64,000 nucleotides of DNA from Dehalococcoidia bacterium (GTDB lineage Bacteria; Chloroflexota; Dehalococcoidia; Lucifugimonadales; UBA3495), in contig CAXXWY010000022.1 in assembly GCA_963668505.2 (NCBI GenBank), forward strand, positions 86,613 to 150,612, read 5' to 3'. The notes under the pieces were generated by a model. That model ran no database searches. It had not been told where the DNA came from and saw only the letters and a program-made list of their open reading frames with translations. Below, one piece after another: positions 6,740-56,677 of this stretch. The translations under genes and the position numbers were made by a program. Every line of letters starts with the position of its first letter. Position 1 is the first letter of the stretch.

Positions 6740-7636
6740 TTAGGCCTGGACCGGGACGTCGATATCGTACTGCTGAAGCACCTCTTCGACCTGGGCGGCC
6801 GATTTGGCGTCCAGTGGCGCCAGCGGAAGCCTGGGTTGGCCCACGTCGAATCCCACCCGGTTCAACGAATGCCTGACCGGGATGGGGTTCGACACGAGGA
6901 ACAGCGCCTTGAACAGCGGCAACAGCCTGCGGTGCTCAGCCGCGGCTCCCTCTACGTCGCCCTCCAACAGGAGGCCCATCATCTGCTTTATCTGGTTCCC
7001 CACCAGGTGCGAGGCGACGCTCACCACGCCGTAGCCCCCGGTGGCCATAATGTAAAAGGTCTCGTTGTCGTTGCCGCTCCACACCAGGAATCCAGGCTTG
7101 GCCCCGTCTATGATGCGGGTAATCTGGTCCATGTCGCTGCCGGCCTCTTTTATACCAACGATGTTCTCTATCTCGCTCAGGCGGATGGTCGTATCGTCGG
7201 TCATGTTCAGGCTGGTGCGGCTGGTCACGTTGTACAAGATGCAGGGCAGGTCGACGCTCCCGGCAACGGCCTTGAAGTGCTGGTACAGCCCCTCCTGGGG
7301 CGGCTTGTTGTAGTAGGGCACCACCAGCAGAAGGCCGTCAACTCCCTGTCTCTCGGCTTGCTTGCTCAGTTCTATGCTTTCGGCGGTGTTGTAGGTGCCC
7401 GTGCCCGCGATGATCGCCCCCCTGTCGCCCACGGCGCCCTTCACCTCGGCGAACAAGCGCAACTTTTCATCAACACTCAATGTTGGCGATTCGCCAGTGG
7501 TGCCCGACAAGAGGACCCCGTCGCTGCCCGAGTCCAGCAGGGCCTTGGCCAGGCGCTTGGCCTGCTCGTAGTCCACCCGTCCCTGGTCATCGAACGGGGT
7601 GACCATTGCAGTGATTAGCCTGCCTAGCTCTTTCAT
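6740..7636 (-). CDS. dapA: 4-hydroxy-tetrahydrodipicolinate synthase
   Basis: Track ORF 6740..7708; DapA pattern ITAMVTPF...GTTGESPTLS...GIKEAG; started at ATG 7636 (MKELGRL), which is preceded by AGGAGGG. Confidence 0.9.
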   Translation of the reverse strand: MKELGRLITAMVTPFDDQGRVDYEQAKRLAKALLDSGSDGVLLSGTTGESPTLSVDEKLRLFAEVKGAVGDRGAIIAGTGTYNTAESIELSKQAERQGVDGLLLVVPYYNKPPQEGLYQHFKAVAGSVDLPCILYNVTSRTSLNMTDDTTIRLSEIENIVGIKEAGSDMDQITRIIDGAKPGFLVWSGNDNETFYIMATGGYGVVSVASHLVGNQIKQMMGLLLEGDVEGAAAEHRRLLPLFKALFLVSNPIPVRHSLNRVGFDVGQPRLPLAPLDAKSAAQVEEVLQQYDIDVPVQA

Positions 7637-7685
7637 GTCAACCCTCCTGGCGGGCAGCCGTTCGTCTCGCCGCAGGGATTGATTC

Positions 7686-8732
7686 TCAATCTGTGGCGCC
7701 GGTCTCAACCCTGGGATTGAGGATCCCCCGGGACACCAGTTCCTCGGCTATCTGGATCGAGTTGAGGGCCGCGCCTTTTCGGAGGTTGTCCGACACTATC
7801 CACATGGCCAGGCCCTTTGGATTGGACGAATCCTGGCGGATTCGCCCCACGAATACTTCATCGGTCCCGCTGGCAGCCCATGGCATCGGGTAGACGCTGT
7901 TCGCCGGGTCGTCCATGACGGTCACGCCTGGCATTGCCGACAGAAGACTGCGCGCCTCCTCAGCCGCCATGGGCTGCTCGAACTCCATGTGCACCGCCGC
8001 GCTGTGCGACACGTACACCGGCACCCGGACGCAAGTGGCGGAAATCTGGATGTCCGGAGCATGCATGATCTTGCGGGTCTCCTGGCGCACCTTTTGCTCT
8101 TCCATGGTGTACCCGTCATCCAGAAAGCTGTCGATGCGCGGTATCAGGTTGAAGGCGATCTGCTGTTCCAGGGCCTTTGGTTGCGCTTCCCTGCCCTCCA
8201 GCAAGTCCCGGCTCTGCTCCCGAAGTTCCTCCATGGGTGCTCCCCCGGCCCCGGAAACCGACTGATAGGTATCGGCGATGATCCTGACAATGGGGTTTAC
8301 CCGGTGCAACGGGTGCGCTGCCATGACCAGGGGGGTAGTAGAGCAATTGGGTATGGAAATGATCCCTTGATGCCATTCCACGTCCGCCCCGTTGACCTCG
8401 GGCGCAACCAACGGCACGTCGTCCCGCATACGGAATGCGGAGCCATCGTCGATGACCACGGCCCCGGCGGCTACGGCTGCGGGGGCGAAACGGCGGCTGA
8501 CCTCGCTGCTGACTGATATAAATGCGATGTCCACCCCGGCAAAGGACTCTTCTGTGGTCTCTTCTACAAGCAACTCCATGTTGCCCAGGGAAAGCCGCTT
8601 CCCCGCTGACTGACTGGAGGCCAACGCCTTAACGCGCGGCAACGCTGGATAACGTTGTTCCAATATGCGGAAAAACGTGGTTCCAACGGCGCCGGTGGCG
8701 CCGACTACCGCTATGTTTAGCCCTTCCAACAT
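7686..8732 (-). CDS. asd: Aspartate-semialdehyde dehydrogenase
   Basis: 348-aa ORF; NIAVVGATGAVG Rossmann motif and IPNCSTT active-site motif. Confidence 0.9.
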   Translation of the reverse strand: MLEGLNIAVVGATGAVGTTFFRILEQRYPALPRVKALASSQSAGKRLSLGNMELLVEETTEESFAGVDIAFISVSSEVSRRFAPAAVAAGAVVIDDGSAFRMRDDVPLVAPEVNGADVEWHQGIISIPNCSTTPLVMAAHPLHRVNPIVRIIADTYQSVSGAGGAPMEELREQSRDLLEGREAQPKALEQQIAFNLIPRIDSFLDDGYTMEEQKVRQETRKIMHAPDIQISATCVRVPVYVSHSAAVHMEFEQPMAAEEARSLLSAMPGVTVMDDPANSVYPMPWAASGTDEVFVGRIRQDSSNPKGLAMWIVSDNLRKGAALNSIQIAEELVSRGILNPRVETGATD

Positions 8733-37356: not shown

Positions 37357-40300
37357 CTACTGGATTCGGTGCCAGCCGCTCCAGGAGCCCCAGATGACGT
37401 TGAACGCCCGCACCCGGAAGAAGGTGCCGTGGTTCGAGAAGTTCCTGCAATGCTGATTGCCGCCCACGTACTTGCTGGTCGTTGTGCTCTCGCCCGCGCT
37501 GCTGGTGTTGATCGACCGCTTACACTCTATCCCGTACTTGCTGATCCCGGTATGGCCGGTGCCCGTGTTGCTGGGCGCTGTCCAGCTTGCATTCCAGTTG
37601 CTCGTGTTGATGCTAAGGCCCGTCGGCGTGCCCGGCGCTTGGAGCGCGGCTAGCGACGACGACTGCGCCCACGCGCTGGCCGCGTTGCCGCTGCCCGTGG
37701 CGCGCAGGCGAATGACGTAGGCGTTGCCCTTGTCCAGCCCGGTGACGCTGTGGCTGGTGGCCGACGATCCTATCGTGCCGCCGCAGGCCGACCATGTGGA
37801 GCCGCTGTCGGTGCTGCACTCCGCCGCGTAGCCCGTGCGCCCCGTGCTCGACGACGGCGCAGGCCAAGAGAGCGCGACGCTGTCGCTGTTGGCCGTCGCG
37901 CTGTAGGTGCGCGTCGCGGAGAGGCCCGTGGGCGGGCTGAGCGGCGTGTGTGAACGCCGCCGACGCTATCTCCGTCGCGCAGGCGGAGTCGCTGTACGCC
38001 CTGAAGGTGTAGTCCGTGTTGACCGCCAGGCTGCTCAGCGCATGGGAGTAGTCCGACTCGCCCGCCGTGCACGTTCCGGTGTTCGGCGAGGTCTCCTTCA
38101 GCCACCAGCCGCCCGCCTTGCCCGTCAGCGTCAGCGTGGCGGTCGTGCTGGTGACGTCGCTCACCACGAGCGACTGCCCCGGCGGCACCGCCGCCACCTC
38201 GAGCTTCAGCGGCACGCCGCTGTTGTCCCAGACGTTTCCGGGGCGATGCCTGCCGTTGTCCGCAAGCGACCAGCCGTTGGCCGAGGGGACCCTCGTCTCG
38301 CCGGTCGAGCCCGTCCTGGCGATGTCGTAGTAGTTGGAGCCGCCGGGGGCGTTGGGCGCGCTCAGCCAGATGTAGTAGGTCGTGTTCCTCGACAACGAGC
38401 AGTTGTTTGTGCTGCTGGGCGTGCAGGCGTAAGTGTAGTTCCCGTTCCCGGTGGGGTCGCTGCCGCTCAGCGTGGCCAGCGCCGGTCCGATGTTCACCCC
38501 CGAAGCCGAGTGCAGCTTCACCGTGAACTCGCCCGGGCTGCCCGTCTTCCCGTTGACGCGGATGGTGATGCTCGACAGCGTGTAGCCGCTCGTGTTCGAG
38601 CCGGTGGTGAAGCCTTGCGCCGCGACCGAGCCCTGCTGGTAATGGCCGACTTTGTAGGAGCCCGACCCCGTCGCGCCTATGTTGCTCACCGTCACCGCCG
38701 TTGTGAACGTCACGCTGCGGAGCGCCGTCGTGCAGGTGGCGTCGCCGTACGCCGCGTAGGCGTAAGTACTGCCCGCCGTGAGGCTGCTCAGCGCGTGGGA
38801 GAAGTCGGCCTCGCCCGCCTCGCAGGTCCCGGCGGGCGCGGGCGATGTCCGCTTCAGCCACCAACTGCCCGTGTGCCCCGTCAGCGTCAGCGTCGCCGTG
38901 GTCGTGTGGATGCCGCTCACGGCGATCCAGTTCGCCTCCGTGGTGAACGACGTCCTGCCGATAACCGTCGTGCAGGACGAATCGCTGTACGCCTCGTAGG
39001 TGTACGCCGTGCCGCGATTGAGGTTCGATAGGTCAAGGGCGGCGCCGTAGCCCACGCCGGACGAGCACGTCCCGCCGCTGGGCGTCGTGTACTTCGCGTA
39101 CCAGTTGCCCGTGCCGCTGCCGGAGAGCGTGAGCGTCGCCGTCGTGTCCGTGACGCTGCTCGCCGTCATCGTGCGCAGCGTGGTGAACGTCCCGCTGGCG
39201 ACCACCTGCTTGCAGGCGGAATCCCGGTAAGCCGCGTAGGTGTACCCCGTGTTCTGTTGCAGGCCCGTGAGGGCGAGCGTCGAGCCATTGGCAATGGCGG
39301 ACGAGCACGCCCCGCCGGCGGGGGTGATCCGCTTCGTGTGCCAGGCGCTCTCGCCGCCCTCGTTGGCCAGCGTCAGCGTTGCCGTCGACGTGGCGATGTC
39401 GCTGGCGGTGAGCGACGGCGCGTCATGGCCGTACTCCACGCTGAACATGACCGCGCGCACCAGGCGCGTCCACGTCGAGCCGCCGTCGTCCGTGTGCCGG
39501 ATCTCGTTGGCGATGCTGAACCCGCTGTCGGCGGGCGACGCCGTCTCGTTGTTCGTGCCCGACCGCTGCCAGTAGTAGGCCCGCCCCGTGGTGCCGCTGC
39601 AGTCCTGCACTCCCTCGACGGTGCGGCATTGCGGCACGGGGACGCTGAGCACGACGTAGTAGGTCTCGCCGGAGTCAAGGGCGCAGCCGTCGCCGGAGCA
39701 GGTGTATATCCCTTGGGAGTTCTCCGGCGGCCGCGCCGGGCCGCTGAGCGCGGCGTTGGCAATCGCCGTCCCAGGGTTGCCGTCGCTCCCCGCGCTGAAG
39801 AGACGCACGTTCAGGTCATACTCGGGGGCCGGCATTCCGATGCCGCTGTCCCCGAACAGGAGCGTTACGCGATTGAGGGTGAAGCTGTCCGCGCCCGTTC
39901 CCGTGGTGAAGGAGCTCGCCGTCCAGTCGTTGGCCGACCAGCCCACGGGCATGGTGGAGCCTACCTGCCGCTGGCCCAGGTTGCTCACGCTCGCCTTTGC
40001 GGTCGTGAACGTCACGTCCGTGTCGAATGCCGGGGAGCAGGGCGCGGCCTCAGTGGACATGTACGCCTTGAAGGTGTATTCCGTGCCGGGTGTGAGGCCG
40101 GTGACGGGCGCGCTCGCGACCCCTTGGCTGCCGAAGCCGTCGAAGTGGCCCACGCAGGCGGCGCCGGTCTCGGTCGATTTGTACCCCCAGGTGCTGTTGG
40201 ACCCCACGTTGTAGGCGAGGAAGGTCGCGGTCGTCGCGGTCACGTTCTCGACACCTCCCCTGGACGAGGATGCGGGGAAGAGGTGCTTGCTCGCGATTGC

Positions 40301-42817
40301 GTCCGCGGCGTCGCAGCCGTCCTTGCTGTACGCCTCGAAGGCGTACTGGTTCCTGTTGGTGTGGTCGAAGGTGAAGCCGGTCAGCGTCACCGACGAGGTC
40401 CCTTCAGCGACGGACGTGCAGGTCCCGGCGGTGGGGGCGGTCTGCTGGTACCACCACGCCGCCGTCGTCGTCCCATCCGCCTTCGTCCAGTTGACGATGT
40501 TGATCGTCAAGGTGTCCGCGCTCGTGTCCGCGCTGCCGTCCAGGCGGACGGTCTTGAAGGAGACGGCTCCGACCGCGGCGGCGCAGCCGGAATCGACGTA
40601 TGCGGTGTAGGTGTAGCTCTCCCCCGGGGTCAGGCTGAGCGCCACGCTCTTCTGCCCGTAGCCCACGGCATAGCAGGTGTCGTCGCCGCTGGGCGCGGTG
40701 CGCTTGTACCACCAGTTGGTCAGCAGGCCGGAGCCCTCGATGACGAGCGTCGCCGAGTTGTCCGTGACCCCGTCCGCGCGCAGCCCGTACAGCGTTGTGA
40801 AGGTGGCCGTGGTGACGGCGTCGCCGAGGCACTGCCGGTTGTCGTAGGCGGCGTAGGTGTAGGCCCGCCCCGGCAGCAAGCCGGTGATGTTCACCGATGC
40901 GCCGCCCGCCGACGTGCAGAGGCTGTCGTTGGGCGAGGTCTGCGCGTACCACCAGTCGCCTGTGGACGTAACTGTGAGCGTCGCCCCCTCTGTCGTCTCG
41001 GCGCTGGCGCTCATCTGGACCGCTGCGTTGGCGTTGGCCGCGACGATGCTCACCATGCCGACCCTGTCCGACTGCCAGCGGAGCTGACCATTGTTGTTCG
41101 TTAGACCGCTGTTGGCGATGGACCAGCCGTTGCCGGCGGGAGTGTTGACCTCGCTGCCCGAGTTCGTCGTCCGCAGCCTATGGCCCTGGATGCTGACCCC
41201 CCCGGCTGCGGTGCTCATGACGATGAAGTAGGTGGTGTTGGGGTCGAGCGCACAGTCCGTCCCGGAGCAGTTCCAGGTGTTATTGGCGCCGGTGCCCGGT
41301 TGGCCGGGGCCGTCGCTCAGCGTGACCTTGGCCGTCGCCGCGGGGTGGTTCGAGTTGTTGGCGTCCGGCGCGTGGATGGCCACCACGATGTCCGGAGGAT
41401 TGCTTTGTTTCTGGTGGAAGAAACCGCTGACGCTGCTGAGGGTGTAGCCGCCAAGCCTGCCGCCCGTGGTGAAGGCGACGGCGCACTTGGAGCCGCCGGT
41501 GCGGTCGCCCACCGAGCAGGTGTAGTTCCACTGCTGGCCGATGTTGCTGACGGAGACGTTGCCGGGGGACAGGTTGGCCTGGGTCTGCGCCGTTGCCGAG
41601 GCGATCTCCGCGCCGCCGCACTGGCCGTTGCCGTAGGCGGTGATGGTGTAGCCGGTGTCCGAGTCGAGGCCGGTAACCGTCGCCTCCGAGCCGTTGACCG
41701 GCCCGGTGCAGGTCACGGACTGGGCGGATGCGATGCCCGCGCCGCCTGTGTTCGCCCCGCCGCCGGAGGTCTGGCTGGTGGTGTAGTACCACTCGCCGCT
41801 GTAGTTGTCCATGGTGAGAGTGGCGCCGGTCGGCGTCGGGTCGGTGACGGTCAGCGTGGGCGGCGGCGTGTACGGCCCGATGGACGGCGAGTTGCGCCAG
41901 TTGCTGCCGCCGGCGCTGTTCTTGGCGCGCACACCGACGATGTAGGTGGAGTCGTTGTCAGCGTCGATTTCGATGCTAGTCTCGGCGTGATCGAGGGCGG
42001 CGAGCTGCCAGCTCTGCGCGCCGTCGTCGGTGTAGGTGACGTGGTAGCCGGTCGCGCCGCTCGGAGCATCCCAAGACGCCGTCAGCGTCCCGTCGGAGCG
42101 GGTTACGGTGACGGATGCGACCGCGCCGGGCGGCGTGGGCCCGGGCGTGTAGGGACCGACAGCGGGCGAGTTGACCCAGTTGCTGCCGCCGCTGCTGTTC
42201 TTGGCTCGCACGCCGACGATGTAGGTCTTGGCGTTGTCCGCGCTGAACGTGATGCTCGTTCCGGTGTGGCTGAGGGCGGCGAGTTGCCAGCTCTGCGCGC
42301 CGTCGTCGGTGTAGGTTACGTGGTAGCTGGTCGCGCCCGCGGGGGCTGTCCAGCTTGCGGCGAGTGAGCCGTCGGCGCGGGTTACGGTGACGGATGCGAC
42401 CGCATCGGGCGGGGTTGGCGTAGGCGTGGGCGTGTACGGGCCGCTGGACGGCGAGTTGACCCAGCCGCTTCCGCCGTTGTCGTTCTTGGCGCGTACGCCG
42501 ACGATGTAGGTCTTGGCGTTGTCGGCGGAGATGGCGATGCTGTTCGAGGCGTGGGCCAGGGCGGCCAAGTCCCAGCTTGCGCCGCCGGTGGAGCTATAGG
42601 TTACGTGGTAGGAGGTTGCGCCGCTGGGGGCGTCCCAGGTTGCGGTGAGTTGGCCGTCGGAGCGGGTGACGTTTACTGAGGACACCGCATCGGGAGCGTC
42701 CAGCGAACCCTGGGCCGAGGCGGTGGCGGCCCAAGCCGATGCGGCGACTACGGCCGCCAGCAATGCCGCAAACAGCCAGATGGATGGAGATTGTGAAAGT
42801 CTATGCCGTATACCCAT
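37357..42817 (-). CDS. Giant secreted protein (~1,820 aa) made of FN3-like and other beta-sandwich repeats; one apparent frameshift near 37945
   Basis: Track ORF 37613..42817 (signal peptide AASAWAATASAQG; three FN3-like units ...TATWDAPSGATSYHVTY...; many TTG..GYTLSS modules). Its last ~110 aa are low-complexity Arg/Gln-rich sequence unlike the rest of the protein. Hand translation of the frame starting at 37944 gives two more FN3-like units (PLSPPTGLSATRTYSATANSDSVALSW...RLRATGSGNAASAW...; ...NASWTAPSNTG...FFRVRAFN) ending at TAG 37357-37359. Confidence 0.75.
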
Positions 42818-49230: not shown

Positions 49231-49324
49231 TGCTTCCTCCTTGCAGGGAGCGGTCGGGGCGCTTCACCGGCGTCGGTCTGGGTTATGACATTCTTGCGTT
49301 GGCGTAGTCACGGTGAATGGGCCG

Positions 49325-49354
49325 ATTGTAGGGTGCGGTCGAAGACATTGTCAA
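49325..49354 (-). promoter_or_regulatory. Near-consensus sigma-70-like promoter for the HMGL-like gene
   Basis: Minus strand TTGACA (49349-49354), 18 nt, TACAAT (49325-49330); about 90 nt upstream of ATG 49230. Confidence 0.4.
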
Positions 49355-49390
49355 GAAATTTGGCGGCCCGGCGAGGGGCGTTGCGAGAGG

Positions 49391-49435
49391 GCGGCAAATT
49401 TTTAGTTCCCCTTCCATTATCTCCCATTTGGCGGG
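49391..49435. repeat. Third copy of the phased TCCCATT-type motif block
   Basis: gcggcaaatttttagttccccTTCCATTatcTCCCATTtggcggg resembles 34127-34180; a degenerate second copy follows at 49450-49498. Confidence 0.55.
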
Positions 49436-49790
49436 AGTGAGGCCCCGTTGGGAAATTTTCATTTTCTGGGCCATATTGAGCCATTTGGCGACATTCCCTA
49501 GCTGAGAGACACTGGCAGGCGGTGCAGCAATATCTCGATGTTTGTAGCTGGGGCATCCAGAATGTCCCATGAAGGGGCTGAATACGGCGGAAATTGGCGC
49601 AGACGGTTCGCGCCGCCTCGGGGCGGAAGGCTGCGCCGCGGGCAGTCGGCTTGGTGACAACATGGTTTGAGTTTAGGCATTGGGGTTGGGGCGCGTCAAT
49701 GGGGTTTTGTCAGTAGGGGGTGGGGTGTTGGGGGGCAAGGCGGCAACGCCCCTGGGACAAGCCGTCGCCTTCTAGGGGGTATCACAATAG

Positions 49791-50967
49791 TCACAGTGCC
49801 TTTTTGACCATGTCGACATCAATCGTCCCACCCGGCTTTAGGGCACCCGAAAGCACTGACTTCTCCAAGACTCTCCGACACGCTCTGAACAATTCCGACG
49901 AGGTCTTGATCTGTGTCCCCTCTGCGATGGCAAACAGGGCGTTTCCTTCGAAAGGATACTCATCTGGGTCCTCTGCATCATAACGATAGCCCTTCAAAAC
50001 CTGCCTGAGGAACTCCACCGCCTCGTCTGAGGTGAGCGGCTCTATTTCTAGTGGCTCGCGAGACATTCGCCTGATGACGGCTTGGGTTAGCAGTCCGTAT
50101 ATGCTCCTTACATCCCCAGTCATCCCGAAAATGAAACAGCAATTCTCTGGACAAGCGTTGATGAGATCACGGATGCCTTGGTTCATACTCAAAGCTTCCT
50201 GTGGCCGAAAGTCATTTGCGATCTCAAGCTCATCAAAGAAAAAATAGGAACGCTCTGTTGCGTCCGATGACATCCCCCTCACTAAGAATACTAGTACCCC
50301 TCGTGCACAAGTTAACGTATGCACCCAGACACCTGGTTGCATCGTATTCAGATTCGATTGCACTAGTCATGTTGTACTTGGCGTATTTGCTCATCGCACC
50401 CGCCCCGGGAAGCTTCCCGCCGAGTAGGAGCGCGAGTGCTTCGCTAGATTCGCCCTTGATGCCTCTCAAGAGAAGTCCAAGCGGAGGATAGCTTGGCGTC
50501 AGCCCAGGATCATTGTAGATTCCGTCCATGGCTTTTTGCTGTTCTTGTAAAGTGCCATTCGGGTTCTGTCTCTTAGCAGTTTCTTCAACAGCAAGATCAA
50601 GCCACTCAGAGGTTTCCTTTATGTGGGGCACCAAGAGATCCATGATCTTGTTGTATAGGGCAACAAAGTTCATGTTTGCGGCGACTTTCAAAGTCTCAAG
50701 GTAGACACAAGGCGAAGCAAATTCCTCTTTTCGTTCCTCTGTAATCAAATAGCTGAGGTATCTGAGAGCATGAGATTTGCCAGTCCCCAGTTCGCCGTGA
50801 AGTATTGCAAACTCCGACAGACCGACTTGATCTGATCTACACGATTGCACTATGTCCAAAAGTTGCGACCTAAGCTGGCTATATCCTGCCCAAATCGTAA
50901 CTTTCTCACCCGGAACCAAAGTGAACGGGTTATTGGTTAACTTCGCAATCTCCAGGGTAGTATTCAT
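49791..50967 (-). pseudogene. ORC/Cdc6-like AAA+ P-loop ATPase (island gene 5) with one frame disruption
   Basis: ORF 50233..50967 (NPFTLVPG...FAILHGELGTGKSHALRYL, Walker A) and ORF 49791..50363 (SYFFFDELE Walker B, ...CCFIFGMTGD...) overlap; frames rejoin at either the A6 run 50239-50244 or the C5 run 50274-50278. Confidence 0.7.
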
Positions 50968-51558
50968 CTACTGTGCCCCCTTCGCGTCTGCGATCGCAGA
51001 ACGATTGTTTGAAGCCCAGGTGGCAAAGGTCTGGGTGCCGGGATTGCCGATTAGGTCAGTTTCAATGAGTTTCGCTGTGGATGAGTACACGAGTCGATCC
51101 CCGGTCAACAAGGCCAACTCAAGAAGAGCCGGTGCGGTTGAACTCTTAGTGCCAAAGCCTCTGCTTGTGAGATTCGGTGATCCAACGATTACCATCTCTG
51201 AATCGTGGCTATCCTGGAATAGATATGCCTTAGCATGAAGATCAGGGTGGAGATAGACCTCGGCCCCCTTTTGGTCCAAATCCTCCAGCAATTGTAATTT
51301 CATTCTAAAGCGTTGATTCTTGCCACTACTTCCTGGGGGAGGCGTTGTCATTACAGTTATTTTTGCCCCGTAAGCAAGTTGTCTGACAAGCAAATCAGAC
51401 AGAACCCCATTTCCCCAGAAATCATAGTCTTGCATGTTGAAGGAAATAATTGTCGCCTTGGTCAAGAGTCTAAACGCCCCTATCCACTGGAGAACCTCTT
51501 GGGCTACATCGTCTCCTAGGGCAGGGATGACAACTGGCGTGTTGCTCTGGGCTTGCAT
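50968..51558 (-). CDS. Single-HKD phospholipase-D-family nuclease (island gene 4)
   Basis: 196-aa ORF; LHPDLHAKAYLFQDSHDSEMVIVGSPNLTSRG matches the HxK...GSxN PLD/Nuc signature; its stop abuts the next start (TAG-ATG at 50968/50967). Confidence 0.75.
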   Translation of the reverse strand: MQAQSNTPVVIPALGDDVAQEVLQWIGAFRLLTKATIISFNMQDYDFWGNGVLSDLLVRQLAYGAKITVMTTPPPGSSGKNQRFRMKLQLLEDLDQKGAEVYLHPDLHAKAYLFQDSHDSEMVIVGSPNLTSRGFGTKSSTAPALLELALLTGDRLVYSSTAKLIETDLIGNPGTQTFATWASNNRSAIADAKGAQ

Positions 51559-51567
51559 CGCAGCAAT

Positions 51568-52743
51568 CTACGGGACAAAGCCCTTCATGGCAATGTAGCC
51601 ACTGCGGCCGTGCCTTTGACGCATCCTATATATCTTATCTGGAAACTCTTGGAATGTAGATTCCATAAGATCACTGAATGAACTCCGGTCGAGATACTTA
51701 CCGTCAGCCGCTAGTTGGGCGGCCATTGCATCATATATGGATTCGATGGCCGCCTCATTGAAAACATGGAATTTTACATGAGGGTAAATCGCCTCGATAA
51801 ATCGAAAGTACTCGTCAAGCGATAAATGAGCTGGCGATGCTGACCCTAGGAATGATGATGATATCGCCTGCCAACACAAGTCCTTCGGGTCGTCTGAAGG
51901 CGCAAGGCCGAGCAATTGGGTGACTTCGGCGGAAAAGGGCAGGACAAGTGCTGATCCTGAACAGCAGCCCTCCTCCTTGAATGCCGACAATAGCCGGCGT
52001 CCTGACTCAGTTACGCGATAATCTTCCCCACTCTGTTGCCGAATGTAGCCGAGATCCTTCAGCCACCCTCTTCTAGGATTTACGGTGTGTGAATAAAACC
52101 TCTCTACCTTCTGCTCTGGGGTGAAGCTTCGGTCTTCCCTGTAGGCCGACCAAGACTGGGTCTGTTTGCGGTCCATGTCCACAGCGGTCGTAAGCCGCCG
52201 CTTTGAATCGGAAAGTTCCTGCAAGATGATATCCCTGACCAACTTCGATTCGATATTTTGGTTTGCCCAAGACTCGCGAAGCGTCAAGATGCTCAGTAAA
52301 CGGCCTACTAGCAGTTCACCGAGTGAAGTTGATATGTCGGCATTGGCGAGGATGTCAAGAAGGTTTAGAGTTGCTTCTCCATCGGATTCGAGCACCGCAT
52401 GCAACAGCAACGCCCCGATAGATTCATTAGAGGCATTTGTCTGCTGAATGGCGTACAGCGCGTACCCTTTGTCCGATAGCATAAGTTTGTTCCCGGCTTT
52501 ATGAAGGAATCCAAGAGCTCTACCGACGTCAATAACCCCGTCAGCGTATTTAGGCCCGTTTACGGCTTCCCGTTCTAGTATCACAGAGCGAAGAGAGGTA
52601 ACGGAAGCAGGTCCAATATTGTGAAGATAGGTCACCAGTCTGGCGAATCGAAAGATGTCGTGCAAGCCGTTGGTGTAACCGATCCTGCGAGAAAGTTCCC
52701 CCCTGACTCGAGCACGCTGCTGAACTAACCCAAGCATAGCCAT
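51568..52743 (-). CDS. Hypothetical protein, 391 aa (island gene 3)
   Basis: Intact ORF, 4-nt gap from the upstream gene and 9-nt gap to the downstream gene; no catalytic motif recognised; possible winged-helix-like segments. Confidence 0.6.
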   Translation of the reverse strand: MAMLGLVQQRARVRGELSRRIGYTNGLHDIFRFARLVTYLHNIGPASVTSLRSVILEREAVNGPKYADGVIDVGRALGFLHKAGNKLMLSDKGYALYAIQQTNASNESIGALLLHAVLESDGEATLNLLDILANADISTSLGELLVGRLLSILTLRESWANQNIESKLVRDIILQELSDSKRRLTTAVDMDRKQTQSWSAYREDRSFTPEQKVERFYSHTVNPRRGWLKDLGYIRQQSGEDYRVTESGRRLLSAFKEEGCCSGSALVLPFSAEVTQLLGLAPSDDPKDLCWQAISSSFLGSASPAHLSLDEYFRFIEAIYPHVKFHVFNEAAIESIYDAMAAQLAADGKYLDRSSFSDLMESTFQEFPDKIYRMRQRHGRSGYIAMKGFVP

Positions 52744-52747
52744 GAGC

Positions 52748-54208
52748 CTATACTACCTTTGGCTCATCGCCACCGTGCGCTGTAACCCTCGGCCTCATGG
52801 CTACCAAGATGGCTCGATTCGTTTCTGCATCTGCAATCCATGCTTCTCCTGTTTCTAGCGCTCTGATGAGTGCCAGACGATCGGAAATTCTCGCAGTGCC
52901 GAAGGAAACATCCCTGGGGAAGTCCGCGGGCACTCGCGCAAGAGCAGCCGAAATATCCGCATCTACCACCAGTCGATGAGCAATGAGCAAGTCAACTTGG
53001 CTAACGACTCGCGAGTCCACGGCAGAGGGCTGCTGGGTTGCAAGTACCAACGAAAGACCCGCATCACGTCCACGTTTGACGTATTCGATAAGGATCGGTT
53101 TCGCCGCGGTCTGACTGTCGGAAGGACAAATGAGGTGTGCCTCATCTATAAGGGTCCAGACACCGAGAGGCAGTGAAGCGTGTTCTTTTGGTAGAGGCCT
53201 TTTTGAGCGTTCAGCAGCTTTCCGTTCCGTGTGGTACCTTCCCATAATGCGGAAGACTTTTTTGGCAATTACACTTACCACCAAAGACTTAGTGGCATCG
53301 TCCAGATTCCGCAGAAGGAAGATGCTCAATTGGCCCGGTCTAAGCACCTCAAGAACATCCCAACTACGCTTTTGGAATACCTTACTGTCCCGCAAGGCTT
53401 CAAGTTTCCAAAGGATAGCGTCACGTGTTTGTCGCTGTGAGTGTTCGTTGAGCTCGACATCCTCTTGCAAACAAGCAATCAGGTCGCCAAGGTCGTACTC
53501 TTCCTGAGCCGCGACCTTTCGATGTCCTTGTCTACCAATTCCCTCGGGTACAGTATAGCCAGCTTCGGAAACCTTCCTTAGAAGATTTCTGATAACTTGA
53601 CCTTGAGGAGAATAGATTTCCAATCTGAAAAGACCACACCAATCCTCAAGGTCAAGTTCCGCAGGGTCAATAGAAAACTCGACGGCTTCAGGGTGAACGG
53701 ATTGGTCACCATAGGGAGCAAAGAGCTTTGCCGAGGGCACTTGTTTAGCAGGAATGCCCCACTGCTGAAGCTGGATAAGCTGCTCTTTGTCCTCCTCGAG
53801 GCCTTCGTCTGGTGCATTTAGGAGTGCCCAAAACTGGCTTTGAGTATCGAAAAAGAGGGTTGTTATTGCCGAATCTTTAGTAGCGATGCTGGAGTCATAA
53901 CCCAACGTTAACCCTTCGGCCAAAATGCCTAGGTCATAACTTTTTCCGGTGCCACGGCGACCGCAGACGAAGACCACATGTGGAGTATGGACATCAAGCC
54001 AGACGTTTGAATCAAATTTATTGGAAACGCGAGCTTGCTCTATACATTTCCCTAGTAATATTAAGGCACTAGTGTCACCGCGATTTCGGCGCTGACCCAT
54101 AAGGAGATGCCGTCCGTTGGAGATGTATGCAGCCCGTTCGATAGGCTCAGATACTTCAACCTTTCGGACTCCTGTTATGTGCCCGAGAGATGGCATGCTA
54201 GATGGCAT
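52748..54208 (-). CDS. HerA/FtsK-superfamily (DUF87-like) ATPase (island gene 2)
   Basis: 486-aa ORF; Walker A VFVCGRRGTGKSYD, Walker B VWTLIDEAHLI, SLVLATQQPSAVD...LLIAHRL; start overlaps the upstream stop (alternative ATG at 54196). Confidence 0.8.
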   Translation of the reverse strand: MPSSMPSLGHITGVRKVEVSEPIERAAYISNGRHLLMGQRRNRGDTSALILLGKCIEQARVSNKFDSNVWLDVHTPHVVFVCGRRGTGKSYDLGILAEGLTLGYDSSIATKDSAITTLFFDTQSQFWALLNAPDEGLEEDKEQLIQLQQWGIPAKQVPSAKLFAPYGDQSVHPEAVEFSIDPAELDLEDWCGLFRLEIYSPQGQVIRNLLRKVSEAGYTVPEGIGRQGHRKVAAQEEYDLGDLIACLQEDVELNEHSQRQTRDAILWKLEALRDSKVFQKRSWDVLEVLRPGQLSIFLLRNLDDATKSLVVSVIAKKVFRIMGRYHTERKAAERSKRPLPKEHASLPLGVWTLIDEAHLICPSDSQTAAKPILIEYVKRGRDAGLSLVLATQQPSAVDSRVVSQVDLLIAHRLVVDADISAALARVPADFPRDVSFGTARISDRLALIRALETGEAWIADAETNRAILVAMRPRVTAHGGDEPKVV

Positions 54209-56378
54209 CTGCTAATTCTCCATCAAGATGCACAAAGTCCACAATCGTAACGAAGCTATCTTCTTTCAGACTTGGGTCGGTTCTTTGGAGGAAGCCTTTA
54301 AGCTCAGATATATCTGAGAATCCATCGAGAGTTGTATCGCCGCAATATAGGCTGCGAAGATGCATCTGTGTGCAACGGGTGACGCGTACCAGCTTTTGTT
54401 GATCGTCATCATGTAGCAACGTTAGCCCTCGCTGAAGACGCTTGCGGCCTCTGTATATCGCCGTATGTTTTGATCCGTCTTGTGCAGAAAACAAAGATCT
54501 GCCGTTATCAGTGAAGCTTTGCAACCTGGAGCCGCGACGTTTCTGAATTCCCAATAATTGAATATATTCGGTCCCGGTCGACACTGAATTGTGCGCTGAA
54601 CTGCTAAGTCTAACAACGAGGTCCGGCTGGAGGGAATGTATGAACGGCCGGGGATTAGAGGCGGCAGCGATAACCGTGACTCCATACTTCTTCGAAGTGC
54701 GTTGAACATTGTAGGCAACTAGGTTGGCAGTAATCTCATCTAGATTGGAACAAAACTCGTCAACTATCCACACATTGCTTCCCGACGCCAGCATTCGTGC
54801 AAGCAATGTCCTGTACTGTTGACCCTTGCTCAATTCCTCAAACCGCTTAAGGTAAAGGAATGGTTCTGAAAGACCGGCCAGCCCTAGATAATGTAGGCCC
54901 TCCCTAACGCCGTCGTCCGCAAAGAGCTCTATTAGTGACTTTTGGGATCGTATCGGGCGAAAGGATGATGAGCGAAAGCCATCCGGTAAGGCGATACAAC
55001 CGTCAACCTCGACCTTGGTGGAATCCACTTGGCCCACCAATGATTCTAGCAGCGTCGTCTTGCCAGAGCCTGATGGCCCTTCAACCAACACTATGTCGCC
55101 TGGCGAAATGTCACAGTTTAGGTCGTGCAACACGGTAGTGCGAATGTCAGTCGGCGATATGTCGAATGCCTGCTGTATTGCATGGGTAGCTAAAGTCCTG
55201 CGAACTCGGCTCCGGTAGGTGATGCTCAATCCCGATATATGTATAGGGCCCTCAACGGGCTTAGTGTGAGTCTTTGGATTGTAGGCTGGTTCCTCTGGTG
55301 CCAAGGTAGCTAGGCGATTCTTCAAGAACTGACTCGAATACTCATTCAGGCCCATCATGTAAGTAGGTTTGGGTAGCGAGACGATACCACGAAAAAGGTC
55401 GAAGTCCTTAAGCACGGAGTGAACTGACAATCGTTGGAGCCTCGTCGTGAGGTCGCTTGCCTTTATGTTTTGTTCCTTCATCAAGGCCACGGACCTTTTC
55501 ATTCGAGCTACTTGTTGGTCGAGGATGCCAGATATTTGCTCAAATTGAGTTGTATCCTCTTCTCCTTCTCCAAAACGCTGAATGAGGTAACTCATATCTT
55601 TAGCGACACGGTTCAGATTTCCATCAGTTTCTCCAACGTAATCCATTCCCGCACGACGCACGAACGGAACAAACTTCAGCATGTCGGCGGAGATTTCGAG
55701 GAAGAACGGCATTTTGCCTGCCACTTGCCATCGGTGACGTGCGAAGATCGCAGCTTGCTCCACCAATAACCTGCCAATGCCGAATCCCCTAAATTCGGGA
55801 GAGATCACCGTCCTAGAAATTCTGACTAACCTATGTATGTTCTTTCTGAGAGTTTGGATATCCCAGGCGTCCCAACGAACCCCGTCCAGGTCGAAGGGGG
55901 CGTCGAGTATCCTTGCCCTTGGTTTGTTCATGAAGAACGGGGTTGCGAGCTCGATAAAGCCTATGACCATTGGGTAAGCAGGGTCAAACGTCCGGACAAT
56001 TAGTCTCGCAGTGCGGCCGTGTACCGTACTGCCCCTGTAGTGGAGATCAGACAAGTGCTCATATGCGGAGTGCTCATGTGCGTCGGTTATCTCCTTTATA
56101 AGCACATCCAGCCGTAACCCTCCCAACGTGAGGCTAATCGGCGACGCAAAGCTAGGAAGTATCTGACACCTACCAGTGTCGCAAGGGACCCAGGCCTTAG
56201 TGCCTTCTTGCAAAATAAGGTCGTCGGTGGTGAGACAAGCTGACCGTGGCACATCTAGCCAAACTGGGCCAGGTTCGAGACGGAGCCTCTTTACGTGCCC
56301 TCTCCATGTAACTGAGGCGACCGACATCTCGCGTCTTGCCTGACTGTGGAGCGGCGTTCTGTCTCGAGTCTCTGCCAT
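54198..56378 (-). CDS. GNAT acetyltransferase - ABC-type ATPase - C-terminal ASCH/PUA-like fusion protein (island gene 1)
   Basis: Track ORF to TTG 56411; ATGs at 56378 and 56327. GNAT motif A SPEFRGFGIGRLLVEQAA; ABC motifs GPSGSGKTT, LSKGQQYR, VWIVDEFCSNLD; tail ...HTAIYRGRKRLQRG...KLVRVTRC...TTLDGFSDISELKGFLQR...FVTIVDFVHL resembles ASCH. Confidence 0.75.
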   Translation of the reverse strand: MAETRDRTPLHSQARREMSVASVTWRGHVKRLRLEPGPVWLDVPRSACLTTDDLILQEGTKAWVPCDTGRCQILPSFASPISLTLGGLRLDVLIKEITDAHEHSAYEHLSDLHYRGSTVHGRTARLIVRTFDPAYPMVIGFIELATPFFMNKPRARILDAPFDLDGVRWDAWDIQTLRKNIHRLVRISRTVISPEFRGFGIGRLLVEQAAIFARHRWQVAGKMPFFLEISADMLKFVPFVRRAGMDYVGETDGNLNRVAKDMSYLIQRFGEGEEDTTQFEQISGILDQQVARMKRSVALMKEQNIKASDLTTRLQRLSVHSVLKDFDLFRGIVSLPKPTYMMGLNEYSSQFLKNRLATLAPEEPAYNPKTHTKPVEGPIHISGLSITYRSRVRRTLATHAIQQAFDISPTDIRTTVLHDLNCDISPGDIVLVEGPSGSGKTTLLESLVGQVDSTKVEVDGCIALPDGFRSSSFRPIRSQKSLIELFADDGVREGLHYLGLAGLSEPFLYLKRFEELSKGQQYRTLLARMLASGSNVWIVDEFCSNLDEITANLVAYNVQRTSKKYGVTVIAAASNPRPFIHSLQPDLVVRLSSSAHNSVSTGTEYIQLLGIQKRRGSRLQSFTDNGRSLFSAQDGSKHTAIYRGRKRLQRGLTLLHDDDQQKLVRVTRCTQMHLRSLYCGDTTLDGFSDISELKGFLQRTDPSLKEDSFVTIVDFVHLDGELADAI

Positions 56379-56677
56379 TCGGCTCCCGTCACTTATTTGG
56401 TAGGGTGCCAAGAGATTATGCGCTAGTCTAGGCTCGAACTGTATTCTACTTTGGTACCCTGAGACAGTCTACTACCGTGAGGAGAGTTCACAGAGTTTCT
56501 CGGACGAGGGCACGCATGCGGGTTTGTGCAATGGGTGAATGCCCCCTATCCCTCTGGCGTTGGTACGGCTATTGCAAAAAGAACAATGGCTCTGGACGAG
56601 GCATGCCATAGGTTGACTGTACAAGCATGGGGGCGGCATACTGGCGTCGTCTTGAGCCTCTATCCTGCGGGAGACGC

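Follow-up and report, generated by a model that had tools for sequence, protein, structure and literature searches.

A horizontally acquired five-gene HerA-type cassette in a Dehalococcoidia genome, predicted to act in defence, and the second life of its GNAT-ABC fusion gene at DISARM-type loci

The 64,000-nucleotide window analysed here (contig CAXXWY010000022.1 of assembly GCA_963668505.2, positions 86,613 to 150,612) belongs to the genome of a Dehalococcoidia bacterium and carries a cassette of five genes, g1 to g5, which an earlier, sequence-only reading had put forward as a candidate undescribed defence system. The genes are all located on the minus strand and span window positions 49791-56378. 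The first one, g1 (54198-56378), encodes a GNAT-ABC-ASCH fusion protein of 726 aa. It is followed by g2 (52748-54208), for a HerA/FtsK-type (DUF87) translocase ATPase of 486 aa, and by g3 (51568-52743), for a cassette-specific protein of 391 aa that has no Pfam family and is probably DNA-binding. Next come g4 (50968-51558), encoding a single-HKD phospholipase D (PLD)-family nuclease of 196 aa, and g5 (49791-50967), encoding a P-loop ATPase of the AAA_16/ORC-Cdc6/STAND/BrxC-D-like kind, 391 aa long after repair of a frameshift. Open reading frame (ORF) analysis reproduced the described packing exactly: g1 and g2 overlap by 11 nt, and the remaining gaps are 4, 9 and 0 nt. The longest ORF of g1 extends over 54198-56411, but the ATG at 56378 is favoured as start by the homologues and orthologues, and the resulting protein is identical to database protein P0001.

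The cassette coincides with a compositional island (49791-56420, no strand) of ~0.50 G+C in a genome of ~0.63 G+C. The AT-richer block had been recognized from hand counts on single 60-nt lines (27, 27, 35 and 47 of 60), all of which proved exact, and windowed G+C displays a sharp break, with 0.504 in the block versus 0.627 in the remaining window. The lowest 6.6-kb stretch outside the island still reaches 0.593 (standard deviation 0.02), which places the island about six standard deviations under the mean. The shift is also visible in the G+C content at third codon positions, 0.47-0.58 in the island genes versus 0.65-0.87 in the flanking genes. The five-gene operon is horizontally acquired. 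Its flanks in the window are of a housekeeping nature (an HMGL-like gene, an alpha/beta hydrolase and a Liv-type ABC transporter). No integrase, transposase or tRNA was found at the island edges, and the search for bounding repeats or att-like sites returned short, chance-level repeats only.

From the N- to the C-terminus, g1 is composed of a beta-rich domain (residues ~16-96), a GNAT domain (~113-285), a helical linker, an ABC nucleotide-binding domain (NBD, ~379-610) and an ASCH/PUA-like beta-barrel (~621-717). The ABC domain, of the transporter type, is clearly matched by Pfam ABC_tran (52.8 bits, cut-off 25). The GNAT domain stays below the Pfam threshold in the window copy (18.6 vs. 20.7) and exceeds it in homologues. 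For ASCH, no Pfam match was obtained in window g1; residues 621-717 form a beta-barrel in the AlphaFold2 (AF2) model (predicted local distance difference test, pLDDT, 80.5), and PF04266 ASCH is recorded in many of the homologues. In an alignment of 34 sequences, the window protein included, the Walker A residues (G434, S436-G437, G439-K440-T441), the ABC signature (S517, G519, Q520), the Walker B D540 and the GNAT acetyl-CoA motif P194-E195-F196-R197-G198 are all invariant.

A total of 688 homologues of g1 was found, the best ones aligning over 94-100% of the query with 45-100% identity. Many among the best 120 of the 688 carry PF04266 ASCH and/or PF00583 GNAT, and several are labelled “ABC-type ATPase with predicted acetyltransferase domain” by JGI. 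Judged from its sequence, window g1 is a member of a GNAT-ABC(-ASCH) fusion family. With the whole g1 model, Foldseek retrieved ABC transporter NBDs only, so that the N-terminal, GNAT and ASCH domains were swamped. In domain-level profile searches against PDB sequences, the GNAT region matched small-molecule and protein acetyltransferases weakly (E 0.14 or worse) and the ASCH region matched ASC-1 and YqfB, again weakly (E 0.06-0.18). The N-terminal beta-rich domain (~80 residues) found no match in the PDB-sequence profile search.

The assignment of g2 as a HerA-type ATPase was borne out by Pfam DUF87 (E 3e-13) and NCBIfam HerA (E 3.8e-11). Among the defence profiles of PADLOC-DB v2.0.0 (2023), which were used throughout, mad8 is the best one for g2 (9.2e-16, nearly full length), ahead of the HerA models. 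The Walker A (G83, R85-G86, G88-K89-S90) and Walker B (D355-E356) residues are invariant in 32 orthologues, and no other cassette gene is as conserved as g2, with its identities of 54-85%. Likewise, g4 is a single-HKD PLD nuclease, as had been read: PLDc_2 is reached with 28.6 bits against a Pfam cut-off of 27, and H108, K110, G126, S127 and N129 are invariant in 28 orthologues. Its PADLOC matches are ZacB (1.2e-7), DpdK (1.5e-6) and DrmC (3.5e-3).

The product of g3 had been described as a protein without any recognizable motif. None of its 82 close homologues has a Pfam domain, and a profile search of 1.84 billion representatives yielded 117 relatives, a family of ~117 representatives at 50% clustering that is spread over at least six phyla. 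The AF2 model (pLDDT 86.7; predicted template modelling score 0.89) contains three helix-helix-helix-strand-strand units, at about residues 32-89, 209-257 and 309-386. Foldseek gave as its best meaningful match the DNA-recognition domain of BpuJI, made of two winged helices (2vla_A, probability 0.96, E 0.03), with MukE/F next. HTH_45 matches weakly at residues 228-257 and more strongly in remote relatives. While the absence of a Pfam family was confirmed, the modelled structure suggests that g3 is probably a DNA binder with multiple winged helix-turn-helix (wHTH) domains.

In the window, g5 is split into two ORFs, 50233-50967 and 49791-50363. Comparison by tblastn with intact orthologues (389-392 aa) placed the switch of frame at ~50246, and the frameshift noticed earlier is explained by one extra C at 50247-50248 on the minus strand. 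It lies just upstream of the Walker B codons, where the minus strand reads GCGTTCCTATTTTTTC versus an orthologue-encoded A-F-Y-F-F-F-D-E. Removal of this base gives a 391-aa protein that aligns end to end with 10 orthologues; the residues of Walker A (G58, G61, G63-K64-S65) and Walker B (D245-E246) show no variation between it and them. The extra base could be a pseudogenising mutation or an assembly error. Because of this frameshift, the window copy of the cassette is probably non-functional as sequenced, unless the assembly is at fault.

Pfam matches for the 11 members of the g5 family were AAA_16 (11/11), AAA_22 (11/11), NACHT (8/11), ORC-CDC6-like (8/11) and BrxC_BrxD (4/11). The best ORC-CDC6-like E-value among the orthologues is 3.4e-5, a BrxC match reaches only 0.021, and a profile search against the PDB returned DnaA only (E 0.15). 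The protein also holds an insert of ~180 aa. The earlier label, an ORC-like AAA+ protein, agrees with the consistency of the ORC-CDC6-like matches. All these matches are near or below the Pfam cut-offs; the broader description as an AAA_16/ORC-Cdc6/STAND/BrxC-D-like P-loop ATPase is the better one.

The distribution of the cassette was surveyed in one genome per GTDB species by an alignment scan with g1, followed by tblastn with all five proteins. The order g1-g2-g3-g4-g5 is kept in 10 genome loci (L007-L014, L036 and the distant L044, in which g3 was not detected). An example with all genes intact is L007, on OZ242329.1 at about 2,922,414-2,944,582. These originate from Chloroflexota/Dehalococcoidia, a Bacillota metagenome-assembled genome (MAG), a Blastocatellia (Acidobacteriota) MAG, and a Rhodobacter and a Rhodocyclaceae MAG (Alpha- and Betaproteobacteria). 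A metagenome scan anchored on the cassette-specific g3 showed the expected neighbours in the expected order on all 27 of 27 contigs, genes being missing only at contig ends. Three remote relatives of g3 were inspected, and each adjoins cassette genes. The first locus (L083) has a GNAT-ABC gene, with a g1 only 33% identical, followed by HerA, g3-like, PLD and BrxC/D-like ATPase genes, and an additional HARE-HTH gene (7294-7977) between the g3-like gene and PLD. In the second (L084), an upstream gene ending in an ABC domain precedes HerA, g3-like, PLD and AAA_16 ATPase genes; the third, a 1.9-kb contig (L082), shows a g3-like gene followed by PLD, with nothing more visible. The predicted co-occurrence of the five families was thus recovered in genomes, in metagenomes as far as the contigs reach, and in remote variants. 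Since the same families recur in the same order in all three, they constitute a deeply conserved unit, inserted as a whole at differing genomic sites.

The flanks of 14 loci contain integrases (4), ArdC_N (2) and Schlafen-like ATPases (2); the rest are unrelated housekeeping genes. Toxin-antitoxin modules and insertion sequence elements were also seen near some copies. A tblastn search of 72,556 plasmids with g3 gave no match. Among viral contigs there is a single match (L081, 700-12115), in which a g1 homologue is located at the contig end. Immediately upstream of the g1 homologue, this contig has phage-type genes (AAA_24, DUF669, DUF3310) together with the gene of a large DUF2924-containing serine recombinase, so that a putative defence gene abuts a prophage integration module here. 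In one Dehalococcoidia genome (L009/L004, 14800-20200), the operon is split by ~5.4 kb inserted between g3 and g4, comprising an IS1595-family transposase and several ORFs. Another Dehalococcoidia locus (L013, 10001-16570) has a g1 that is 50% identical to the window copy, and g3, g4 and g5 that are only 28%, 39% and 42% identical. In this locus, the cassette members either diverge at very different rates or were reassorted.

A second genomic context of g1, which had escaped the sequence-only reading, is the most informative point of the analysis. The other g1 homologues, 37-47% identical, are found in Cyanobacteria, Acidobacteriota, Bacteroidota, Gemmatimonadota, Alphaproteobacteria, Planctomycetota and Dehalogenimonas. 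In ~25 loci, that is, all other homologues with enough flanking sequence, g1 is positioned directly upstream of DrmE-DrmA-DrmB-DrmC, components of the DISARM defence system (L015, L017-L019, L021-L028, L030-L034, L037, L038, L040-L042 and L045; for example L030, 9791-20934). In the complete genome of Altericista sp. CCNU0014, where the locus lies on NZ_CP137338.1 at about 5,557,315-5,579,405, PADLOC profiles identified DrmA (5.6e-166), DrmB (1.9e-47), DrmC (9e-18) and DrmE (5e-13), the last one also matched by Pfam DrmE_C (2.4e-70), and the operon is bordered by housekeeping genes. The position of g1 matches that of the methyltransferase in DISARM class 2. Cyanobacterial g1 proteins have an extra N-terminal HTH_17 domain (MerR/excisionase-type, E 9e-12), which also matches PADLOC mad1 (L030, 9791-12121; longer ORFs in L017 and L023). 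Instead of a fused helix-turn-helix (HTH), Dehalogenimonas (L002) has a small MarR-like gene standing by itself upstream of g1.

A methyltransferase hidden near these DISARM-type loci was considered and rejected. Among 66 flanking ORFs from 18 loci that were scanned with Pfam, no methyltransferase family occurred in more than one ORF, and a motif screen of the flanks flagged one methyltransferase ORF, on the strand opposite to the operon. Two methyltransferase genes were encountered in all at the DISARM-type loci, one with an N6_N4_Mtase match and one of the MmeI type beside L002, the latter on the opposite strand. On sequence grounds, g1 together with DrmE-A-B-C looks like a DISARM class 2 core without methyltransferase, a previously unremarked variant.

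The HerA-type and the DISARM-type contexts are mutually exclusive, as they were never seen together in genome or metagenome loci, and tblastn with DrmA, DrmB and DrmE detected nothing in the HerA-type loci. Common to both sets of partners are a DNA motor and a small PLD nuclease. In a neighbour-joining tree of g1 with 200 bootstraps, a clean split between both contexts was never recovered (0/200), and a single ancient separation of HerA-type and DISARM-type g1 was rejected accordingly. A second HerA-type clade, lacking ASCH, is separate in 197/200 bootstraps, while the DISARM-type g1 of Dehalogenimonas (L002) clusters with the main HerA-type clade in 179/200. Because the tree interleaves both contexts, g1 is considered, from these sequence relationships, to be a portable module whose partner sets changed at least two or three times.

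Some g1 loci deviate from these two arrangements. In a Chitinophagaceae MAG, a class-II prokaryotic Argonaute (L024, 20053-21930; PADLOC pAgo_II, E 5e-195) is present after DrmB in place of the PLD protein DrmC, and in L025 a 442-aa gene occupies the DrmC place after DrmB. L046 (4614-6433) seems to be a decayed DISARM-type locus: of its GNAT-ABC gene the first ~250 residues remain, joined to the C-terminal third of DrmB and then DrmC, as an internal deletion would leave them. Only fragments of g1 were found in L043, L047 and L048.

No named system was detected by PADLOC v2.0.0 among the window proteins, only partial domain matches (mad3/mad8, HerA C-termini, and ZacB/DpdK/DrmC at the HKD motif), and no description of this gene set or of a GNAT-headed DISARM was found in the full-text literature. 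A look-up of protein clusters likewise returned neither a name nor an accession for these proteins. The claim of an undescribed system stands to that extent, although the general kind is not new. Neighbourhoods with HerA, an ORC-like ATPase, wHTH proteins and a nuclease were predicted earlier as anti-invader “HerA/FtsK capture systems” (Krishnan et al., Nucleic Acids Research 2024, PMC10853773), and these are the closest kind to the cassette. Both are mobile operons with a HerA/FtsK ATPase (g2 here, with DUF87 and invariant Walker motifs) and a nuclease; for the ORC/Cdc6-type ATPase and the fast-evolving multi-wHTH protein of the capture systems, g5 and g3 are the putative counterparts. The logic proposed for them is localisation on the invader DNA, pumping and cutting (PMC10853773). 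In comparison, the nucleases of the capture systems have a restriction endonuclease (REase) fold, and their ORC protein contains an inserted REase that is inactive, whereas the cassette has a separate single-HKD PLD protein; no REase-family match was found in any of its five proteins with Pfam and PADLOC sequence profiles. The GNAT-ABC(-ASCH) head is not among the components of the capture systems either.

DISARM class 2 (DrmE, DrmA, DrmB, DrmC, DrmMII) resembles the window cassette in being a five-gene operon with a small PLD nuclease and a DNA motor. The motor of the cassette is HerA and not a superfamily 2 helicase, however, and g4 matches the DrmC profile only weakly, ZacB and DpdK scoring better. 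Neither the cassette nor its flanks contain a methyltransferase of the DrmMI or DrmMII kind, and DISARM was excluded for the window cassette since DrmA, DrmB and DrmE are lacking too (PADLOC). MADS, the mad1-mad8 system of Pseudomonas aeruginosa (bioRxiv 10.1101/2023.03.30.534895), is a multi-gene system resembling restriction-modification with several ATPases; besides the mad8 match of g2, the ABC part of g1 matches mad3 (1.4e-11). Detection of MADS requires MAD6, MAD7 and MAD8, and its components comprise a methylase and a kinase besides a specificity subunit (bioRxiv 10.1101/2023.03.30.534895). It was rejected, as the cassette shows only the mad8-like and partial mad3-like matches, without mad6, mad7, mad5 or mad2, and none of these three other components is present.

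The set of proteins that defines BREX-Related Capture (BRC) consists of PglZ, DUF6079, a STAND NTPase, DUF4007, HerA and, optionally, GNAT and TGT (Nucleic Acids Research 2026, PMC12839542). It shares with the cassette the HerA/FtsK motor, has an ORC/Cdc6-type ATPase and wHTH binders to which g5 and g3 may correspond, and in some of its loci a GNAT protein is proposed as a non-methyl DNA-modification enzyme (PMC12839542). Contrary to BRC, the cassette has its GNAT domain in one protein with an ABC ATPase and ASCH, and a PLD protein as effector; as neither PglZ, TGT, DUF6079 (BrxC-like) nor DUF4007 was matched at the cassette by Pfam or PADLOC, this system was excluded. SIR2-HerA and DUF4297-HerA also partner a HerA-family ATPase with an effector in defence, but they are two-gene systems, and their PADLOC HerA profiles match only the C-terminal third of g2. 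They were excluded too, the neighbours of HerA being g1 and g3, without a match to SIR2 or DUF4297. Azaca, Dpd and Mokosh were considered by reason of the PLD matches, which cover the HKD motif region only.

Taken together, we infer with good confidence that the cassette serves in defence. More specifically, it is somewhat more probably than otherwise a horizontally acquired, self-contained HerA “capture”-type system against invaders (phages or plasmids), to which a portable ATP-dependent acetyltransferase module has been added. In such a system, the putative multi-wHTH protein g3 and the ORC/STAND/BrxC-D-like ATPase g5 would recognize DNA and load onto it, a hexamer of the HerA protein g2 would pump the loaded DNA, and the single-HKD PLD nuclease g4 would cut the DNA being pumped. 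This division of labour, to which we give about an even chance, follows the logic of the capture systems (PMC10853773). The GNAT-ABC protein itself would serve the HerA set or the DrmE-A-B-C core, two restriction engines that can stand in for each other and that both include a PLD nuclease. As neither context has a methyltransferase, its most likely role would be the discrimination between self and non-self, by an acetyl mark that is written and read on nucleic acid, plausibly N4-acetylcytosine in DNA.

The main clue to this acetyl self-mark is the position-for-position replacement of the DISARM methyltransferase by g1, neither cassette having a further modification enzyme. The strict retention of the GNAT and ABC motifs, the frequent fusion to ASCH and the occasional N-terminal HTH point in the same direction. 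Self-marks other than methylation exist in Dnd/Ssp, Dpd and type-4 BREX. Domains of the ASCH/PUA superfamily read modified bases; the ASCH protein YqfB of E. coli hydrolyses N4-acetylcytidine (ac4C), and TmcA/NAT10 are ATPase-coupled GNATs making ac4C. N4-acetylcytosine was chosen as candidate by analogy with these proteins, which, as background, show a GNAT powered by the P-loop ATPase it is fused to, and recognition of acetylated cytosine by an ASCH domain. The analogy is imperfect: the ATPase of g1 is an ABC NBD and not a RecD-like helicase as in TmcA/NAT10, and the PDB matches of its GNAT and ASCH regions are weak. An acetyl self-mark made by g1 is put forward as a tentative idea, on the doubtful side. 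Its complete form is more speculative still: g1 as a writer-reader that would mark host DNA with acetyl (most plausibly N4-acetylcytosine, from acetyl-CoA and ATP), replacing methylation for both the HerA/wHTH/ORC-like/PLD and the DrmE-A-B-C engines.

Several points weigh against this interpretation. To our knowledge, no acetylation of bacterial DNA is known, and HerA “capture” systems have so far been known as computational predictions only. In bacterial conflict systems, a GNAT domain is often that of a toxin acetylating tRNA or protein, and the ABC ATPases of defence systems are often sensors. Restriction by DISARM is not strictly dependent on methylation, and a DISARM without methyltransferase therefore need not have a substitute mark. 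ASCH cannot be essential, as it is absent from whole subclades of g1 in both the HerA-type and DISARM-type contexts. The wHTH call for g3 is based on a weak Foldseek E-value (0.03) and a pattern of secondary structure, and the family signals of g5 are individually near or below the Pfam cut-offs, though consistent across 11 orthologues. Finally, known defence genes occur only occasionally in the flanks of the cassette.

Some of these points would fit the main alternative, a system of the abortive-infection or toxin type, in which the ABC domain of g1 senses an infection cue, the GNAT domain acetylates aminoacyl-tRNA or a host or phage protein, and growth stops, while HerA and PLD degrade DNA in parallel and no self-mark is needed. 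Conflict systems commonly contain GNAT toxins of the TacT/AtaT/ItaT type, and also sensor ATPases of the ABC type; ASCH domains bind RNA as well, and ASCH is dispensable in several g1 subclades. Among PDB sequences, the GNAT region is matched best, though weakly (E 0.14 or worse), by small-molecule and protein acetyltransferases. This explanation is nevertheless judged unlikely, since g1 always heads operons of DNA motors and PLD DNases, occupies the place of the methyltransferase of DISARM class 2 and carries an N-terminal DNA-binding HTH in some proteins, and since no antitoxin-like partner was seen.

The presence of a HerA/FtsK pump and an ORC-like ATPase, proteins that also serve segregation, conjugation and replication initiation, leads to a further explanation, that of a DNA-processing module of a mobile element rather than immunity, in which the pump and the ORC-like initiator, with the wHTH proteins and the nuclease, would act in replication, segregation or transfer. 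Integrases and ArdC_N are located near some copies, and neighbourhoods of this kind show features of mobile elements and defence systems alike (PMC10853773). The interior of the cassette, however, contains no recombinase, relaxase, replication or coupling gene, and its flanks are housekeeping genes in the window and in several complete genomes. Together with the lack of any match to g3 in 72,556 plasmids, the single viral contig, where the gene lies beside an integrase at the contig edge, and the sharing of the g1 module with DISARM, an experimentally shown defence system, this makes a mobile-element function improbable. A role in housekeeping DNA repair, as a HerA-NurA-like end-resection complex with an accessory acetyltransferase, is the least credible of all and can be regarded as very improbable. 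It would be in line with the NCBIfam HerA double-strand-break-repair models that match g2 (E 3.8e-11), but the score is far under the equivalog cut-off (42 vs. 800 bits) and no NurA, Mre11 or Rad50 is present. The patchy occurrence across phyla, foreign composition and variable location of the cassette, and the frameshift apparently tolerated in the window copy, do not fit a repair function either.

If the predicted HerA capture-type system is active, a widely scattered but rare multi-gene immune system would be gained, and the cassette would offer a genetic handle on HerA “capture” systems, so far computational predictions. The portable GNAT-ABC(-ASCH) module is the more important point than the cassette itself. 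It raises the question of nucleic-acid acetylation as a signal for self and non-self, instead of methylation, phosphorothioation or deazaguanine. If true, restriction-modification based on acetylation and a functional acetylation of a bacterial DNA base would both be seen here for the first time. Whether g1 acts as writer of a self-mark or as sensor or toxin, either outcome would inform on the recombination of defence modules.

Regarding the sequences around the cassette, promoter and terminator scans of the region gave counts at or below the expectation from shuffled sequence, and an Rfam scan of the whole window gave tRNA-Ile as sole match. A weak promoter-like site is located upstream of g1 (56443-56471). 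The best sigma-70-like match of the region (49325-49354, 11/12) lies at the other side of the cassette, in a spacer of ~560 nt (49231-49790) between the HMGL-like gene and the end of g5. Its G+C content is intermediate and uneven, and its only ORF is a doubtful one of 126 aa (49283-49663, minus strand). This spacer may be a remnant of the insertion event. Further away, a 1734-aa ORF on the minus strand (37613-42817) contains fibronectin type III repeats and has a weak match to a phage tail-tip Ig-like domain; it sits in the most GC-rich stretch of the window, with 0.67-0.70 G+C at 37-42 kb.

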